A stretch of DNA of 64,000 bases from NCBI GenBank assembly GCA_038087875.1, contig CM075987.1, positions 18,788,001 through 18,852,000 on the forward strand. Reading direction: 5' to 3'. Positions within the stretch are counted from its first letter, which is position 1. Each line of letters begins with the position of its first letter. Shown piece after piece: positions 8,068 to 49,439 of this stretch. A model generated the notes under the pieces. The model was not told the DNA's origin. It saw nothing but the letters and a program-made list of their open reading frames with translations, and did no database searches. The translations under genes were made by a program, and so were the position numbers. Origin of the DNA: Malacoraja senta. Taxonomy: Eukaryota.

Positions 8068-9265
8068 TCAAGTCAAGTCAAGTCAAGTGAGTTTATTGTC
8101 ATGTGTCCCTGATAGGAGAATGCAATTCTTGCTTTGCTTCAGCACAACAGAACATAGTAGGCATTTACTACAAAACAGATCAGTGTGTCCATATACCATA
8201 ATATAAATATATACACACATGAATAAATAAACTGATAAAGTGCAGATAACAGATAATGGGTTATTAATAATCAGAGTTTTGTCCGAGCCAGGTTTAATAG
8301 CCTGATGGCTGTGGGGAAGTAGCTATTCCTGAACCTGGTTGTTGCAGTCTTCAGGCTCCTGTACCTTCTACCTGAAGGTAGTAGGGAGATGAGTGTGTGG
8401 CCAGGATGGTGTGGGCCCTTGATGATGCTGCCAGCCTTTTTGAGGCAGCGACTGCGATAGATCCCCTCGATGGAAGGGAGGTCAGAGCCGATGATGGACT
8501 GGACAGTGTTTACTACGTTTTGTAGTCTTTTCCTCTCCAGGGCGCTCAAGTTGCCAAACCAAGCCACGATGCACCCAGTCAGCATGCTCTCTACTGTGCA
8601 CATGTAGAAGTTAGAGAGAGTCCTCCTTGACAAACCGACTCTCCGTAATCTTCTCAGGAAGTAGAGGCGCTGATGAGCTTTCTTGATAATCGCATTAGTG
8701 TTCACGGACCAGGAAAGATCTTCAGAGATGTGCACCCCCAGGAATTTGAAGCTCTTGACCCTTTAAACCATTGACCCGTTGATATAAACGGGACTGTGGG
8801 TCCCCATCCTACTCCTTCCAAAGTCCACAATCAGTTCCTTGGTTTTGCTGGTGTTGAGGGCTAGGTTATTGTGCTGGCACCATATGGACAGTTGCTCGAT
8901 CTCTTCTATACTCTGACTCATCCCCATCAGTGATACGTCCCACCACAGTGGTGTCATCAGCGAACTTGATGATGGAGTTCGCACTGTGACCGGCTACGCA
9001 GTCATGAGTATAGAGTGAGTACAGCAGGGGGCTGAGCACGCAGCCTTGAGGTGCTCCCGTGCTGATTGTTATCGAGGCTGACACATTTCCACCAATATGA
9101 ACAGACTGTGGTCTGTGAATGAGGAAGTTGAGGATCCAATTGCAGAGGGATGCGCAGAGACCCAGTTCTGCGAGTTTGGTAACCAGCTTGGAGGGGATGA
9201 TTGTGTTAAATGCCGAGCTGTAATCGATGAATAACAGCCTGACATATGAGTTTTTGTTGTCCAAG
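8068..9265 (-). mobile_element. Rex1/Babar LINE, 5'-truncated, RT plus C-terminal region
   Basis: ORFs 8866-9264 ([13 protein letters not shown]…[12 protein letters not shown]…KFADD), 8763-8984 and 8271-8735; one frameshift and one stop; (CTTGA)n tail at 8068-8087; nested inside an HE1 SINE. Confidence 0.92.
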
Positions 9266-9829
9266 TAGGCTAATTGGCCTCTGTAAATCGCCCCTGGTGT
9301 ATAGGGAGTTGATGTGGACAGTATTCTTTATCCCAAGTCTCTCTCCTCATGCAAACTACACCCGTTTAAAATCCAAGCTCCAGATTTCAAATCATTGCAT
9401 CATCTTTTGCTTTCTTTGTCCCCAGCAGTGCCCTGTATTGTGGACATTCAGCTAGTGGACCTGCTCCCATTGATTGTGCAAGCAATGCCTTTGCTCAGTA
9501 AATGATGAGACTGGGGAACTTGCTACCGCAAGGAGCAGCAGAAGTGGCTGTATAAGTATCCAAGGACCAAAAGATTTGAAGAATGGCTGTGCCAGGACAA
9601 CAGACCTTTAAGGCCAAGATAAGACTCCATGTTTAAGAACTTTGAAACTAAAGGATACAAGATGGTGCCAGAAAAATGCAACTCATGTACTGCCTCAGTG
9701 TAATCTGCTACTCTTACACAGTCTTGTACTTAGATATGATTGTGTCTATGTATTGTAAGACCTTTACTGAATTCAATGCAAAAGTGGGATTTCACTGTAC
9801 CATTCAACCAGCAGCATAAAGCATGGAAA

Positions 9830-11303: not shown

Positions 11304-11430
11304 CTTCTTCTTCATGCATATGGCGTGCACAGCCTAAAGTTGTAGGACAACTTGTTCTGTTTGATCTTATTTGATTGTGCACACCAGGTCGAAACAGGGA
11401 TGACCACGTGAAGGTTGCAATCTCCCACCC
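11304..11430 (-). mobile_element. HDV-ribozyme-headed short retroelement, copy A (internal deletion)
   Basis: Homologous to 26281-26414; (GAA)n tail; lacks the J4/2-P2' segment. Confidence 0.8.
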
Positions 11431-17266: not shown

Positions 17267-18253
17267 AGAAACATAGAAACATAGAAATTAGGTGCAGGAG
17301 TAGGCCATTCGGCCCTTCGAGCCTGCACCGCCATTCAATATGATCATGGCTGATCATCCAACTTAGTATCCCATACCTGCCTTCTCTCCATACCCTCTGA
17401 TCCCTTTAGCCACAAGGGCCACATCTACCTCCCTCTTAAATATAGCCAATGAACTGGCCTCGACTACCCTCTGTGGCAGAGAGTTCCAGAGATTCACCAC
17501 TCTCTGTGTGAAAAAAGTTCTTCTCATCTCGGTTTTAAAGGATTTCCCCCTTATCCTTAAGCTGTGACCCCTTGTCCTGGACTTCCCCAACATCGGGAGC
17601 AATCTTCCTGCATCTAGCCTGTCCAACCCCTTAAGAATTTTGTACGTTTCTATAAGATCCCCTCTCAATCTCATAAATTCTAGAGAGTATAAACCAAGTC
17701 TATCCAGTCTTTCTTCATAAGACAGTCCTGACATCCCAGGAATCAGTCTGGTGAACCTTCTCTGCACTCCCTCTATGGCAATAATGTCCTTCCTCAGATT
17801 TGGAGACCAAAACTGTATGCAATACTCCAGGTGTGGTCTCACCAAGACCCTGTACAACTGCAGTAGAACCTCCCTGCTCCTATACTCAAATCCTTTTGCT
17901 ATGAAAGCTAACATACCATACGCTTTCTTCACTGCCTGCTGCACCTGCATGCCTACTTTCAATGACTGGTGTACCATGACACCCAGGTCTCGCTGCATCT
18001 CCCCTTTTCCTAGTCGGCCACCATTTAGATAATAGTCTGCTTTCCTGTTTTTGCCACCAAAGTGGATAACCTCACATTTATCCACATTATACTGCATCTG
18101 CCAAACATTTTCCCACTCACCCAGCCTATCCAAGTCATCTTGCAGTCTCCTAGCATCCTCCTCACAGCTAACACTGCCCCCCAGCTTAGTGTCATCTGCA
18201 AACTTGGAGATATTGCCTTCAATTCCCTCATCCAGATCATTAATATATATTGT
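17267..18253 (-). mobile_element. Young 5'-truncated CR1 LINE (RT C-terminal half, open frame)
   Basis: Uninterrupted frame IYINDLDEGIEGNISKFADDTKL…VRPHLEYCIQFWSP…LWNSLP…; 3' UTR and (TTTCTATG)n tail at 17267-17287. Confidence 0.95.
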
Positions 18254-18362
18254 AAATATATATTACAATATATATATATTACACTATTATATATATATAT
18301 AAATAAATATATATTTAGGCCCTGCTTCAGCCGGACACATGTTGGAGAAGGTCACTCAGCCC

Positions 18363-20130: not shown

Positions 20131-20428
20131 GGTTATTTCAGAACAGAAACAAGGTCAAATTTCTTCACTCAGAGCATAGTGACTCTTTGAAATTCCCAAC
20201 CCAATCTTACGATGAAGGCATAATTGCTGAGTGCCGTCATCAAATGCCTGATATAGCTGAATCTTAATGCCCCAACTTTTGAACTCCATTCCCCCAGCAA
20301 TAACTCCTAACACAATCCCACCATGTACTAAAATGCTCTCCAACCAATTACATAGTTCCTGACTGCTAATAGTTAAGTCACAAAGAGATATCGAATAAAC
20401 AGACCCTCCGGCCTAGCACATCCATGCT

Positions 20429-20561
20429 TCTTCTTCTTCTTCTGCAAAGCCTAAAGTTGTAGGACAACTTGTTCTATTTGATCTTATTTGTTTGTGCACG
20501 CCGGGTTGGTTGCATTTGTCGAAACAGGGCGGACCACGTGAAGGTTGCAATCTCCCACCCC
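20429..20561 (-). mobile_element. HDV-ribozyme-headed short retroelement, copy B
   Basis: TSD gcacatccatgct at 20416-20428 and 20562-20574; (GAA)n tail. Confidence 0.88.
20508..20561 (-). ncRNA. Putative minimal HDV-like self-cleaving ribozyme
   Basis: GGGGUGG-GA-GAUUGCA-ACC-UUCACGU-GGU-CCGCCCU-G-UUUCGA-CAAA-UGCAACC; all helices form, with one P2 mismatch. Confidence 0.75.
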
Positions 20562-25130: not shown

Positions 25131-26280
25131 ATCGATCAAAAGACCCCGGTCAGGTCAGCCTCTGCAGCTTCTCCCTTCAGCAGACAGACACCCTGTGCCA
25201 CAGTGCCTGCAAACATTGACGTGGAATGAAGAATAGGTCTCTGCTCACTGCAGAACGTAATGTTGCACAGAGTTCCCCCTTCCCCCACCTTTTAGGTTTA
25301 TATATCTCACCCTGCTCCACAGCTTATATTCAAGGGAAAGAAAGAGTGATACGCAGAAATAGCATGCAGGTGATTATTTGTAAATGAAAAACGAACACAT
25401 CAAGATGGATGCTGCACTTTTTGATATACTGCTGCATCTTGAGCATACAGCAAGGTACCTCCCCATCACCGCCAGCATTCATTACAATATTAAAATGGCT
25501 ACAGCCCAATAAATTGTGCATCATTAACACAGTCCATTGATTTTTTTGTGTGTGCTGCTGCCAACAGCCCAGGCAGCCAGTCTCTCCACATCAGTCTATT
25601 GGATTGAAATTCATTTCCTATTTAAGGGTCAGAGTCCAGGGCCTCTTTAGTCTGAACTTCCCAAAGGCCAAATCTGATCAATATTTGGAGATATATTTGA
25701 TCCTTGGCTGGTGGCGTAGATTAAGTGGTCATAAATACAATAAAAAAACGGGGACTGCTGCTAACTCGTGACTGCAAAATGAAAGGTGAGCTGAGAGGGA
25801 ACTCTCCACTGAAGGAGTCAATGGGCGTTTACGAAAAAGCACAGATGCTCTCAAGCACACATGCGCACAAGGTTAAAACTGTTTACTAGGCTTTCATTTG
25901 CATCGCTTGCTTTTCTTCAATATGTTTGAGGCTACAGCGAGGATGTTGTGAATGAAAGCATCCATTCATAAGGGACCCCTGATTAATATACCAACAGATT
26001 TAAACGAGTTGGTCACATCTTGCTCCAATCAACAGAAATTGATAAGAATAAAGGATAAAGACAAGAAGATTGCTTGGTGAAACGAGGAATTGCAGTTGCT
26101 GGAATTTTGAACAAAGCACAAAGCACCTGGAGGAACTCGGGGTCAGGCAGCATTTGTGGAGGGAAATGTTTTAGATCAGGGCCCTTCGCTGGACTGCCCC
26201 TTGCATTTAGTTAGATTTTCACCAGTAAACTTCTCAAAACTAACCCCCCATCGCAGTGCTGCAGTAACAGCAGGTTGGGC

Positions 26281-26334
26281 GGGGTGGGAGATTGCAACCT
26301 TCACGTGGTCCACCCTGTTTCGACATATGCAATC
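26281..26334 (+). ncRNA. Putative minimal HDV-like self-cleaving ribozyme
   Basis: P1 26281-87/26310-16 (G1·U), P2 26290-96/26328-34, P3 26297-99/26307-09, L3 UUCACGU, catalytic-position C26324. Confidence 0.75.
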
Positions 26335-26414
26335 AACCAGGCGTGCACAAACAGAAGATGAAACAGAACAAGTTGTCTTACAACTTTAGACTGTGCCCGC
26401 CATACGCAAGAAGA
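26281..26414 (+). mobile_element. HDV-ribozyme-headed short retroelement, copy C
   Basis: TSD agcaggttgggc at 26269-26280 and 26415-26426; tail cgccatacgcaagaagaag. Confidence 0.9.
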
Positions 26415-26824
26415 AGCAGGTTGGGCAGTATCTCTGGAGAACACAGATAAGTGACATTTCAGGTCAGGACCCTTCATTAGACCCATCTCAACTCGAAACC
26501 TCACCTATCCATGTTCTCCAGAAATGCTGCTCGACCCACTGAGTTACTCCAGTGCTTAGTATTTTTTTGTGTACGCCAGTATCTGCAGTTACATGCTTTT
26601 AATTCCTGTTGGATAACACCAGCAGTAAATCCCACAACCCTTCCCTATCTAATATTTGAAGTTGATTTGTCCATTCACAAGGTAAGCACAACAAACAATA
26701 TGATGAAAAGTCACCTGAAACATTAACAGCGTGCCCATCTCCGCAATACTGCCTGACCAACCGAGCATAATTGTGACAAACTGGACTCTGGTTCCCAAAA
26801 TAGCAGGGAGTTGATTCCTTACAC

Positions 26825-36225: not shown

Positions 36226-38579
36226 TTTTTTTTTTTTTAATTTTATTTTTTTATATATAAATTTTTTATTAGAAGCAAACATATTACAGTGTAGAGTAAC
36301 ATATTATAATAGAATAGAAGAAAAAACTTTTCATATACATCAATCATTCATACATTATTAAATTTGTCAATTGTCAGTTAATTCTGCTTCTAGTGTTTTT
36401 TTTATATAGATAGAAAAAGAAAAATAGAGAGAAAGAAGAGAAAGAAAGAAAAATGTCAATATCAAAAAAGAAAAAAAGGTGGAATGAATTACTTATAATA
36501 CGTCATAGGAGATAAGTTCGTATGTTATGAAATATAATTACATCTAATCCTTAGTTCAAGCTTGAGTCGGGCTTTTGCGCTGGGCCACTCTATCCCTTCA
36601 AATAGGCAATGAATGGAGCCCATATTTTAACAAAAAGTTCTTGCTTGTCCATTAAGACGAGTCTAATTCTTTCTAGATGTAGGGTCTCCGACATTTCCAC
36701 AATCCACATTTTAATTGTGGGGGTTGTAGGGCCTTTCCAGAATTTTAATATTAATTTTTTCCCTGTTATTATACTGTAGTCAAGAAAGTTTCTTTGGCTT
36801 GTTGTGAGTGTTAAACTTTGTTCTGAAATCCCAAGTATTATTAATTTTGAGTCTGGAGCTAGTTTGGTATTAACAACTTCGGAGATTATTTGAAAGATAT
36901 CAGTCCAGTAATTTTTAATTTTTATACAATTTGCAAAGGTATGTGTTAAATTGGCCTCTAGATGCAGGCATTTATCACATATAGGAGAAATATGTGGGAA
37001 AATTCTATTTAGTTTTATTTTGGAATAATGTAATCTGTGTAAGACTTTAAATTGTATTAAAGCATGTCTGGCATTTAACGAACATTGATGTATATGTTGT
37101 AAACTTTCGTCCCAAATATCTTTCGTAATAGGATAACCTAACTCATTTTCCCATTTATGTCTATATAGTTCCATCGGTGGTTCCTCATTATTTAAGAGAA
37201 TGTTATAAATATAAGCTATTAATTTCTCAGTGTTAGGATGCTTATTCAAACATTCATCAAGAATTTCTGGTTCCCTAGTCCTATAAACCTGTGTATTGGA
37301 TTTAACATAATCTCTAATTTGTAAATATCTGAAAAAGTTATTTGAGTGTAGTCCATGATTCTGTTGTAACTCTTGAAATGACAGAAAGATGCCTTCCCTA
37401 TAAAGATGTCCAATCCTTTTAATTCCATGATTTTTCCATTGTATAAAACCTCTATCCAATATGGATGGCTTGAATAGAGGATTATTTACAATGGGAAGAC
37501 ATAGTGGTATATTATTCAGTTTTAAAGCCTTTTTTAATTGTTTCCAAATTCGTATTCCACTATGTATTATAGGGTTTTCCTTATAGGTTTTTTTATGCAA
37601 TTTTGTGGTAGCAAATATAATCAAACCTATTTCAAAAGGTAAACAGTCTTCCTTTTCCATCCTTAACCATTCTGGTTGTTGGTCCATTTCTTCCAGCCAG
37701 AAATTCATGTTTTAATATGGACTGCCCAAAAATAAAATAAAAAATTTGGCAAAGCCAAACCTCCGTTGCTCTTTGACTTACATAAATGTTTTTTACTTAT
37801 TCTATGATTCTTATAATCCCAAATAAAGCTTGTAACAATGGAGTCGACTTTTAAAAAAAAGTTTTTTGGAATATATATCGGAATTAATTGAAAAAATATA
37901 GTAGTTGCGGTAAGAAAATCATTTTTATAGCATTAATTCTACCAAGCATTGAAATAGGAAGTGTTTTCCAGCACTGAATATGTTTGTGTAATTTTTTAAG
38001 TAAGGATGGAACATTTTGTTTAAATAAAGAGGTATATGCCTTAGTTACATAGATTCCTAAATATTTAAGTTTATCTTTAACTATTTTAAAAGGGGATTGT
38101 TGTATTGTATTTAAGTTGAATTTTGTTATTGGCATAATTTCACTTTTATTCCAATTAATCCTATATCCTGAGAACTGACCAAATTGTGTTATTAGATTTA
38201 ATAGATTTGGAATACTAGTTTCTAACTTTGTAATATATATTAATACATCATCTGCATATAAGGAAATTTTATTCCTTGTATCTCTAGTGTTGTATCCATG
38301 TATTCCTGGATGGTTTCTAACGCTTTCTGCTAACGGTTCAATTGCAAGAGCAAATAATAGTGGGGATAGTGAACATCCTTGTCTACAACCTCTGGAAAGA
38401 TTAAATTTGGCTGATAACATTTGATTTGTTAATATTCTAGCTGTTGGATTAGAGTATAACAATTTAACCCATGTGCAGAACTTCTCTCCCAATTGAAATT
38501 TTTTCATTACCGAAAATAAATATGTCTATTCTACCTGGTCAAATGCCTTTTCAGCATCTAACGAAATAATTGCTAGATC
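36226..38579 (-). mobile_element. L1/Tx1-clade LINE, 5'-truncated ORF2 (RT, C-terminal Cys motif) with poly(A) tail
   Basis: ISLDAEKAFDQVE* at the 5' end; RGCRQGCSLSPLLF…LYADD (37884-38507); CDKC…HTFANC (36590-37708); poly-T from 36226; inserted into a CR1 tail that resumes at 38580. Confidence 0.93.
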
Positions 38580-46857: not shown

Positions 46858-47967
46858 TATTTTATATTTCTTAGTTGATTGGTCACAGAATCAAAACATA
46901 GGGATTAATTGATGGAAAAAAATGATTGCTAATTATAACCTAATCTTTAATATGTGGACAGGTGCATTTTTGACCATCTTAAAGACTGTGAAGTAGACCA
47001 CTGTAAATGAAATAGTTTATCATCTCATAGTTTATTTTCCCCTTTACCTGTTCATTCTGAAGTACATAATCTTAATTCATACCCTTACACCAGACTGTTT
47101 CTGTGATACATCTCTTCTTGTTTGGACTGTTATGTCATTATTTGCTTTATTATGTCACTGTACCATTGCTAAACACTGCCGTTGCATTTAATCAACTCTT
47201 CCCGGCAAGTTGCTGTATGATCCTCATGAACAATAATTAAGGGGATGGGTCGAGGTGGGGGTAGGGTATGTGGTAAAACAACTTGCACATCCTTATTCTA
47301 CGGACCGGATGGACACAGGTTGAACCTCGGGCATGTGCAAGACCCATTAGTTGCTGGGACCTGCACAGAAGTGAACGAGTGCCATATCAATAACCAAACA
47401 ATCAACCATCCATTATTCTATCTGCAATTATGACACCGAGGCCACGGGGTCAAGGGTGCTATGAACTGTGGATTTATGTCCACTCTTGTGATTTTCACAA
47501 ATCTTGGTAACAAACATCACTGCAGGTGGTTAATAAGGAATTATCTCTGCTCAGATTGATCGCAAGCATTGACAGAGTGAGGGCTATTCTCTCGTTTGAA
47601 GCTTTCTCCAATGCATTGATCATGACTTGTGGCAGTCAGCTCTTTGCTATTATCCAGGGTCATTGGTCCTTCCTGGGAGACACTGCCAGATGTGGTGGCC
47701 TTCACTGTGCTCACAAATCTCCCACCCAGGTCTGCTGACACCATGATCTCAGGATAAACCCTGCCTTTCAATACCTTTAAGGAAAGCCTTATTCCAATCA
47801 TTGAAAAAGGCTGAGCTGCACTTTGCAATTGTTTGCCATTTAAGTGTTTATATTTAAGAATATCGGCAAAAGGTCATCCAATTCTCACCAAATTTATTCC
47901 TTTCTCAACATCCAAGCACACTATATTTCAGCAAAAATGACTCGTCTTTTTTCATCGTCCATCAAGA

Positions 47968-48022
47968 GGGGTAGGAGATTGCAACCTCCACGTTGGTCCG
48001 CCCTATTTCGACGAATGCAGTC
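47968..48022 (+). ncRNA. Degenerate minimal HDV-like ribozyme
   Basis: GGGGUAG-GA-GAUUGCA-ACC-UCCACGUU-GGU-CCGCCCU-A-UUUCGA-CGAA-UGCAGUC; canonical CGAA J4/2, but substitutions in P1 and P1.1. Confidence 0.55.
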
Positions 48023-48104
48023 AACCTGCATGCACAATCAAATAGACCAAATAGAACAAGTTGTCCTACAACTTTAGGCTGTGCATGCCATATGCAGAGA
48101 AGAA
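47968..48104 (+). mobile_element. HDV-ribozyme-headed short retroelement, copy D
   Basis: TSD gtccatcaaga at 47957-47967 and 48105-48115; GAA tail. Confidence 0.88.
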
Positions 48105-49439
48105 GTCCATCAAGAGAACTCAATGTAATTCAACAAACTCAAACACTCTCTTTTTGGGAAGTTCAGGAAAGCACTGAAGAACAGTAGAATGACACCGCCA
48201 AAGGATGGTTCAGATGGTTTTTACAAGGGGTCTTACCAGTAGATTCCTTGGCTGCACTTTCCCTAGTCATAGAGGTGTACAGCAGGGAAACAGGCCCTTC
48301 AGCCCACCTTGTCCATGCTAGTTAGCATATTGGCCATTTGCCTGCATTTGGCCCATAGCCCTATAAACTCTTCCTATCCATATATCTGAACAAATGTCTT
48401 TTAAACCATTACATTTCTTTTTGCCAAATAATTAACCAATTCCTTTTTGAAAGTTTGTGCTCTTTATGCCGAGCAGCTGATGTTTACAACCCATTCTGTG
48501 AATGAATGTCTTCTCATATTCTGTTGCACTTCATCATTTTTCCCCCACAATTATTTCATATCATATTGATTATAGCAATGCCCAGCAATCCAAAAGTACT
48601 TTAGTAGTAAAGTACCCCGAGGTTGCATATGCTAAAGTCATTTCCTTCTATTAACTCTACACAGCAAGTTGTACGTGACACTCTTCCTGGACAGTTGGAG
48701 CAACCCTTTCCTTCACTCAAGGGCATTGTGATATTAACAACTGAATAAATGCTTTACAAGGTATCTTGGCCCCACATGTCATACTGTAGTTACAGTTTAT
48801 AGACACGTTATGGTTAATATTCTGCAGATGGATGGGGAATTTAAACAGAACATACTGCAAAGGTCTTGATTAATAGCATTCACCAAATACATTCTCTGAA
48901 TAAACTGAAAATGCGAACTCTGCTAGATTTATTGACTTGTCTTGTAGATGGTTCTGTACACCTGCTATGTGGTAATAGTATTCTGCTAATTAATTAAAGT
49001 CTGCTCGTGCTGTCATACTGAAGGGTTGTGTGGAATAATGTTGCTCGAGTATTTATCAGACAATTAGTTGGCCATATATTTTCTCTTCAATTAACCTTGC
49101 CCAATACTTCGTAGACTACAAAAGTAAAAAAATATTAACCCTTGCGTGTAAATATAGTACAGGGAACCGATTGGCCTTGGGGGTGTTGTACTCTTATCTT
49201 GAAGGAAGGAAGGATTTGGTTTGTGGTTCACCTCAAACATTTGAGCATCTAATCCAGGCCAATGCAGGAGTGCCCTTCAGATGCAACATTAAGTTCATAA
49301 GTGATTGGGGTAGAATTAGGCCATTCGGCCCATCAAGTCAATTCAAGCATGGCCAATCTATCTTTCCCATCCCATTTTTTAAATGCATTTGCAGCAGCAA
49401 TTTGAAATAGAGGTAAGTCTTCACAATTCTATTTAAGCA

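Follow-up and report, generated by a model that had tools for sequence, protein, structure and literature searches.

Ribozymes resembling that of hepatitis delta virus (HDV) have been described at the 5' ends of R2, R1, R4, RTE, Ingi/L1Tc and LOA elements and of non-autonomous derivatives (PMC6765202, PMC5786205), and a review states that some non-autonomous short interspersed elements (SINEs) use them as well (PMC6765202). In R2 and its short internally deleted elements (SIDEs), L1Tc/NARTc, RTE and Baggins, these and two further sources place the ribozyme as the first module, a position at which cleavage would form the 5' end of the element out of a co-transcript (PMC6765202, PMC5786205, PMC3414825, PMC3383444), and in the R2/SIDE and L1Tc/NARTc systems non-autonomous relatives carry it too. 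Both features appear to recur in a short repeat of Malacoraja senta, four copies of which lie in the stretch of 64,000 nt analysed here (hereafter the window; positions 18,788,001 to 18,852,000 of contig CM075987.1, part of the 1.94-Gb assembly GCA_038087875.1). With a probability of about 70%, judged from sequence comparison, this element is a young, promoter-less, SINE-like retroposon without long terminal repeats, ~134 nt long plus a (GAA)n tail. It would be headed by a minimal 54-nt HDV-like self-cleaving ribozyme with a core of the CPEB3 type, with its RNA 5' end generated by self-cleavage and its mobilisation effected in trans.

The head was compared with the 'loose P4' descriptor of HDV-like ribozymes published by the Luptak and Brejova groups (RNArobo supplement, Figs S11/S36, PMC4870747). 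As presented in that supplement, paired (P), joining (J) and loop (L) regions comprise a P1 helix that begins with a purine and is closed by a pyrimidine, J1/2, a P2 of at least 6 bp and a Watson-Crick P3 of 3 bp. The single strands are an L3 of the form TYYHCG(N)Y, the dinucleotide RN, a linker of 4–54 nt and the tetranucleotide CNRA, and the partner strand of P2 closes the motif (PMC4870747). Membership of the HDV-like class was defined by the order P1-J1/2-P2-P3-L3-P3'-P1'-J1/4-(P4)-J4/2-P2', with a P1 of at least 5 bp. The consensus of the first 54 nt of the element agrees with all parts of the loose P4 descriptor with 0 mismatches. It includes a 7-bp P1 with a G1.U36 pair, a 7-bp P2 and a 3-bp P3 (ACC/GGU), and its single-stranded segments read UUCACGU in L3, GU in J1/4 and CGAA in J4/2 (also CAAA, CUAA and CCAA). 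The motif starts at base 1 of the element, and the module closes precisely on the final base of P2'.

The specificity of the fit was assessed with an implementation of the descriptor made anew for this analysis, both strands being scanned. In 338,749 bases comprising the window and the retrieved loci, 28 matches were obtained, and all of them (28/28) are heads of the family; 12.8 Mb of dinucleotide-shuffled window sequence gave 0 matches. The consensus head is thus shown to be an HDV-like motif, in fit and in specificity. As the motif fits exactly at the starts of the copies, the element probably cuts itself free from longer transcripts.

The element family is young, real and large. The 134-nt copy, used as a genome query, gave 2418 first-look candidates, and 39 of the 40 scored matches began at query base 1, the remaining one at base 3. 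Exact matches to a 35-nt head core numbered 3020 genome-wide (1500 + 1520; 0 for the reversed control), and those to the 27-nt 3' end 2481 (1270 + 1211). Seventy-two copies, selected in different ways and none of them at random, were examined: set A, made up of the 30 sequences that match the window copy best; the three other window copies; set B, 19 copies with the 3' motif and without an exact head core; and set C, 20 copies with the head core and without an exact 3' motif. The full descriptor was passed by 20/30 copies of set A, 7/19 of set B and 13/20 of set C, and the loci fetched later contained no match outside set C. Among the 72 copies, the alignment started at G1 in 64, at base 2 in six, at base 3 in one and at base 5 in one. 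A preliminary description of the window, made from its letters alone, had expected 5' ends to be concentrated at G1 throughout the genome, and both the sampled copies (64/72) and the scored matches (39/40) bear this out.

Of the 50 non-redundant copies having both flanks, 42 carry target-site duplications (TSDs) of 7 bp or more, and the flanking duplications of the sampled copies are 7–16 bp long. The upstream repeat ends directly before G1 (offset 0) in 23 copies and at +1 in 11, the latter ends being ambiguous because the element begins with GGGG. The copies of set A, which represent the youngest subfamily, diverge from their own consensus by 1.36% on average, some of them by 0%, and at least one subfamily therefore moved very recently. 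Near-identical or identical flanks surround the repeat in the locus pairs L012/L028, L105/L106, L117/L118 and L068/L069, which reflect segmental duplication or duplication in the assembly rather than independent insertion. Another interspersed repeat has received several insertions of the element (flanks of L003, L004 and L011), and GAAACGTCACC and GAGTTACTCCAGCATTTTGTGTC are motifs seen repeatedly in flanks that are unrelated.

The closest likeness in the core of the head is to the CPEB3 ribozyme, which, as far as it is detailed in PMC4836649, has U20, C22, A23 and G25, a P1.1 composed of a single G-C and a single U-U pair, and a 4-nt J4/2 of C57-G58-A59-A60. The element has U20, C22, A23 and G25 at the same numbered positions of its head (PMC4836649). 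It further shares with CPEB3 the P1.1 of one G-C and one U-U pair, the 4-nt J4/2 C-G-A-A and G1 at the cleavage site. With the same letters at the same positions, the core of the head is therefore of the CPEB3 type, without the P4 hairpin. The L3 of CPEB3 presumably consists of the same seven letters as that of the element head. The two differ in that CPEB3 is a single-copy, intronic ribozyme with a real P4 hairpin, whereas the element is repeated thousands of times and has a 5-nt linker where P4 would be. The Rfam model of CPEB3 gave no match to the element up to E 10, and the likeness is stated without a claim of homology.

In size, the head resembles minimal HDV-like ribozymes, which were reportedly obtained from the human microbiome (Riccitelli, Delwart and Luptak 2014, by title). 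According to the Background section of PMC4870747, about 50 nt suffices for a catalytically proficient double pseudoknot. The head of 54 nt without a P4 helix contrasts with the ribozymes of R2 (about 184 nt) and L1Tc (77 nt), as given in PMC6765202 and PMC3383444. Another comparison is offered by the LP-SINEs of molluscs (Matetovici et al. 2016, PMC4758252), which, in the parts of that work that concern their structure, share with the element the lack of a small-RNA head, variable TSDs and short tandem repeats at the 3' end, and which are thought to be independent of RNA polymerase III (Pol III) (section 10 of the same paper). They differ in their ~70-bp head, which is common to the 5' untranslated regions of Nimb and RTE long interspersed elements (LINEs) and is read there as a promoter (PMC4758252). 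Among the papers listed by the literature searches, none has a title or abstract that describes the element itself; Ruminski 2011, Riccitelli 2014, Webb and Luptak 2011 and Webb 2009 may describe similar vertebrate elements.

Within the window, the four copies of ~135 bp named in the preliminary description are present at their places, three of them with TSDs adjoining G1, and a sensitive blastn search revealed no fifth copy. Their parts are as follows.

26281-26414, + strand: copy 1 as a whole element.
26281..26334, + strand: 54-nt head of copy 1, with the HDV-like motif; J4/2 reads CAUA (U at 26326), and the head fails the descriptor.
26281-26287, + strand: P1 of copy 1.
26290-26296, + strand: P2 of copy 1.
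26297-26299, + strand: P3 of copy 1.
26300-26306, + strand: L3 of copy 1.
26307-26309, + strand: P3' of copy 1.
26310-26316, + strand: P1' of copy 1.
26324-26327, + strand: J4/2 of copy 1.
26328-26334, + strand: P2' of copy 1.
26335..26416, + strand: body of copy 1 with its (AAG)3 tail.
26269-26280 (5') and 26415-26426 (3'), + strand: TSD of copy 1, AGCAGGTTGGGC; the 3' repeat overlaps the final bases of the tail.
47968..48104, + strand: copy 2, decayed, 9.0% from the family consensus.
47957-47967 and 48105-48115: TSD of copy 2, GTCCATCAAGA.
20428..20561, - strand: copy 3, with its head at 20561-20508 and a (GAA)5 tail.
20573-20562 and 20427-20416: TSD of copy 3, GCATGGATGTGC.
11304..11430, - strand: copy 4, which begins with TGGG; a 13-nt deletion takes out J4/2 and P2'.

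The mean column identity of the four copies in their alignment is 79%. In the three TSD-bounded copies, the direct repeats adjoin G1 at one side and the (GAA)n tail at the other; inspection of the flanks of copy 4 (11430-11304, - strand) gave no convincing TSD. GAA runs of at least three units occur within the window only at two of the element tails. In the body of copy 1, a stem of ~11 bp is possible between GGCGUGCACAA and UGUGCACGCC (about 26340-26350 with 26388-26398; element positions ~60–118), and in the predicted fold a 7-bp hairpin, with 3 nt in its loop, lies inside it. This stem-hairpin may be a structure recognised by the reverse transcriptase of the partner LINE. No host exons were recognised in the window, its 51 open reading frames of at least 100 aa giving matches of the reverse transcriptase type only. 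Three minus-strand fragments of LINEs that encode reverse transcriptase were observed at 8274-9327, 17366-18262 and 36593-38525, none with a (GAA)n tail.

The HDV order was proposed in the preliminary description together with a 7-bp P1 with G1.U, a 7-bp P2, a 3-bp P3, L3, a C in J4/2 and a reduced P4. In all these parts it holds for the consensus, and it does not hold for the individual window copies, none of which is intact (0/4 pass the full descriptor). Copy 1 fails because its J4/2 reads CAUA, so that the reading of this segment as CNRA stands for the family and not for this copy. Copy 3 (head at 20561) fails because its P2' is UGCAACC, which produces an A11-C53 mismatch in P2. In copy 2 (47968), the failure is due to decay, with A6 and C31 mismatched, one nucleotide inserted after L3 and an A in place of G37, and in copy 4 (11430) to the loss of P2'.

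Several observations weigh against a catalytic head. Between J1/4 and J4/2 there is only the 5-nt linker UUCGA and no P4 helix; hence the 'structured P4' descriptor, which asks for 5 bp, does not fit, and the loose P4 form alone does. No Rfam family reached its gathering score in the window, and copy 1, a mutated copy, had no match up to E 10. When a consensus-like copy was compared with 4227 Rfam families, the best sub-threshold match was RF02682, the HDV ribozyme of F. prausnitzii, which is weak by itself, its 15.9 bits (E 0.68) lying below the gathering score of 44. Positions 1–74 of this model align to precisely the 54-nt head, P1 and P3 being paired as proposed. The minimum free energy fold of the head, calculated without pseudoknots, consists of P1 and P3, and that of the whole element contains P2 plus the long body stem; the nested fold of the head shows no gain in stability over shuffles (z +0.59).

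Covariation in P1, P2 and P3, suggested as a check in the preliminary description, gave no support, as 0/18 pairs change on both sides among 66 heads (50 distinct). Standard pairs occupy 95.9% of the helix cells, the same as in the shuffled control. The family is too uniform, and covariation is therefore uninformative either way. Head variants present in at least 10 of 69 copies are confined to positions 8 (J1/2), 32, 42 (linker) and 45. Those at position 32 give U5-A or U5.G and are the only common change within the helices, and position 45, which is the N of CNRA, shows each of the four bases. The descriptor tolerates all of these high-frequency variants, as compared with 49 of the 162 possible single changes. 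However, 4/6 observed changes are transitions, and 29/54 transitions are tolerated regardless. The variant pattern is thus suggestive at best of upkeep of the motif.

Similarity to a classical Pol III head was sought and not observed, as the preliminary description had maintained. ARAGORN found 0 tRNAs in the window, and Rfam indicated no likeness of the element to tRNA, 5S, 7SL or snRNA, besides two chance-level snoRNA rows. No A or B box was detected in the element at up to one mismatch to the consensus forms of these boxes, and it contains no TTTT run. By its sequence features, the element would thus fall outside the classical Pol III SINEs with a small-RNA head. The head could instead be an internal promoter or initiator, of Pol II or of an unusual Pol III kind, that fixes the start at G1, the HDV-like fit being non-functional or secondary. 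A fixed transcription start would yield a uniform 5' end equally well as cleavage, which also speaks against the self-cleaving reading, as does the perfect E-box CACGTG at +22 of the head, which is compatible with a promoter role. SINEs with promoter-like heads that are not of the Pol III type are known (section 10 of PMC4758252), and Pr77 of L1Tc, as reported in PMC3383444, is a promoter and a ribozyme at once. The lack of covariation and of an Rfam match at threshold agrees with a promoter as well. On the other side, the E-box is made up of the L3 and P3' segments of the ribozyme motif, the A and B boxes are absent, and the module ends exactly on the last base of P2'. A chance match to the full descriptor is very unlikely, given 0 in 12.8 Mb of shuffles, and the scallop LP-SINE head shown in the supplement of PMC4758252 is, by eye only, unlike that of the element. 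Taken together, a promoter as the main role of the head is considered unlikely, although it is the most serious of the alternatives.

A structured and non-catalytic RNA module, used for binding of the partner protein, for protection of the 5' end or as an end signal in reverse transcription, would be in keeping with the prediction of P1+P3 and of P2 as stable helices, and the R2 protein is reported to bind the pseudoknot of its own ribozyme (PMC6765202). Such a module leaves unexplained why L3 TYYHCGY, G37 and C44-N-A-A are all present and are kept across subfamilies, as these are every single-stranded nucleotide that catalysis of the HDV type requires; this explanation is regarded as improbable. 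Least credible of all is a chance resemblance, by which an ordinary SINE-like repeat would have a ribozyme-looking 5' end. The structure was read post hoc from a single family, and its nested fold is no stabler than shuffles. Against coincidence stand the empty shuffles, the absence of matches outside the family in about 339 kb of real sequence, the start of the motif at the first base of the element and the fact that the best sub-threshold Rfam match is to an HDV model. The self-cleaving head is therefore the preferred reading.

An autonomous LINE sharing the ends of the element was sought at 40 sampled places. All 20 sampled places with the head (20/20) proved to be the short element, with no LINE sharing it, and so did 19/20 places with the tail, the exception being L091, a truncated copy in unique DNA. 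The both-ends search proposed in the preliminary description thus returned no such LINE from these 40 places, and the relation of a bipartite non-autonomous LINE to its parent was not found there; a rare LINE would be compatible with this sample.

A search of the genome with PF00078 gave 159,857 first-look RVT_1 candidates, and the best matches were dominated by a young L1-like family (L031-L063, e.g. L061:2531-6761) with copies that are 96–99% alike and about 4.2 kb long, many being 5'-truncated. This family was rejected as the partner on account of its A-rich tail and lack of likeness to the element. A second young family is CR1-like (L066:120-3400; L067-L089; L131-L133) and encodes an ORF1 with a GDSL-esterase-like end, an endonuclease, a reverse transcriptase and a CR1-type C-terminus. 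At L066, the element head lies at one end of this LINE and the element tail 3.4 kb downstream, which gave the locus the appearance of a ribozyme-headed CR1-like LINE. The locus is instead an old copy of the element into which the LINE has inserted, because 16/20 other copies of the LINE extend upstream into ORF1, the remaining 4 being truncated at that place. In addition, full-length copies begin with 1.5 to 3.5 tandem repeats of ~80 nt and have a (TGGTTATA)n tail as their true 3' end, and the junction is unique (1/40 best matches). The sequence at L091, considered as a 3' end of the partner, is single-copy upstream, and L091 is therefore a 5'-truncated copy of the element.

The remaining family is LINE-like and (GAA)n-tailed, and is abundant (4228 and 4655 first-look candidates with two queries). 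Its loci include L088:1662-1945, L134:4889-5041 and L136-L138, and its 3' end has the form TTCATTCGC(AAG)n. Of the last bases before the repeat, 15/16 are identical to those of the element, a stretch too short to settle the relationship. The family has a Cys-rich C-terminal motif, and its last ~300 residues gave no Pfam match, including none to RNase H; no frame of more than 320 aa was present among 150 scored matches. It is a weak candidate for the partner. A partner of the Ingi/Vingi type, suggested in the preliminary description, is unsupported, because no LINE sharing either end came to light, the two young LINE families are excluded and the only (GAA)n-tailed family encountered shows no RNase H in its last ~300 residues. 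Two examined copies of the (GAA)n-tailed family share a start that lies some 430 nt from the 3' end, which may mark a short non-autonomous form of that family.

The heads of R2, L1Tc, RTE and Baggins, as described in the sources cited above, stem from the 5' end of the autonomous LINE itself, whereas no LINE of this kind was seen for the element in the sampled places. The element differs from these systems in its 54-nt size without P4, its CPEB3-type core and the lack, so far, of a LINE with the same head. A ribozyme-defined 5' end is a known trick of retroposons, which here would take an unusually small form. A further step would be to regard the head as a free-standing HDV-like ribozyme, minimal and of the CPEB3 type, that is the only 'head' of a class of SINEs and does not derive from a partner LINE's 5' end; this stronger proposal is doubtful.

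The following course of events would be consistent with the self-cleaving reading; what we infer from the sequences is the cleavage, the transcription by read-through and which LINE acts as the partner. A copy of the element inside a longer transcript would be transcribed by read-through, its own promoter being absent. Its head would fold as a nested double pseudoknot (P1, P2, P3 and a one-pair P1.1) and cleave directly 5' of G1 to give an RNA that begins exactly at G1. A (GAA)n-tailed LINE would then supply the reverse transcriptase that uses the 3' stem-loop and (GAA)n end in trans for target-primed reverse transcription. This short RNA would be copied to its end, so that new copies would begin at G1 and be flanked by duplications of 7–16 bp. 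It is proposed that nearly all copies are full length because such short templates would be copied to the end.

If the head does not cleave, the element would be an ordinary lineage-specific SINE-like repeat. If it does, the family would be a compact natural case of a vertebrate retroposon, active very recently, whose 5' ends are set by a ribozyme. Extrapolation gives about 65% as the share of full motifs among the 3020 copies whose 35-nt head core is intact, and with a cleaving head these would constitute a large natural set of 54-nt HDV-like variants for the study of sequence versus activity. The family would also make it possible to study the dependence of a promoter-less SINE on host transcription, and to test whether selection acts against sense intronic copies because they sever pre-mRNAs. 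Should the head prove to be free-standing, a jawed-vertebrate genome would hold about two thousand potentially active, recently spread self-cleaving ribozymes, and the pre-mRNAs of the host would be cut by copies lying in introns in the sense orientation. The core of the element matches the CPEB3 ribozyme in the residues checked, which bears on the origin of that mammalian ribozyme; with a free-standing head, retroposon heads of this kind would be a plausible source of domesticated single-copy ribozymes such as CPEB3.
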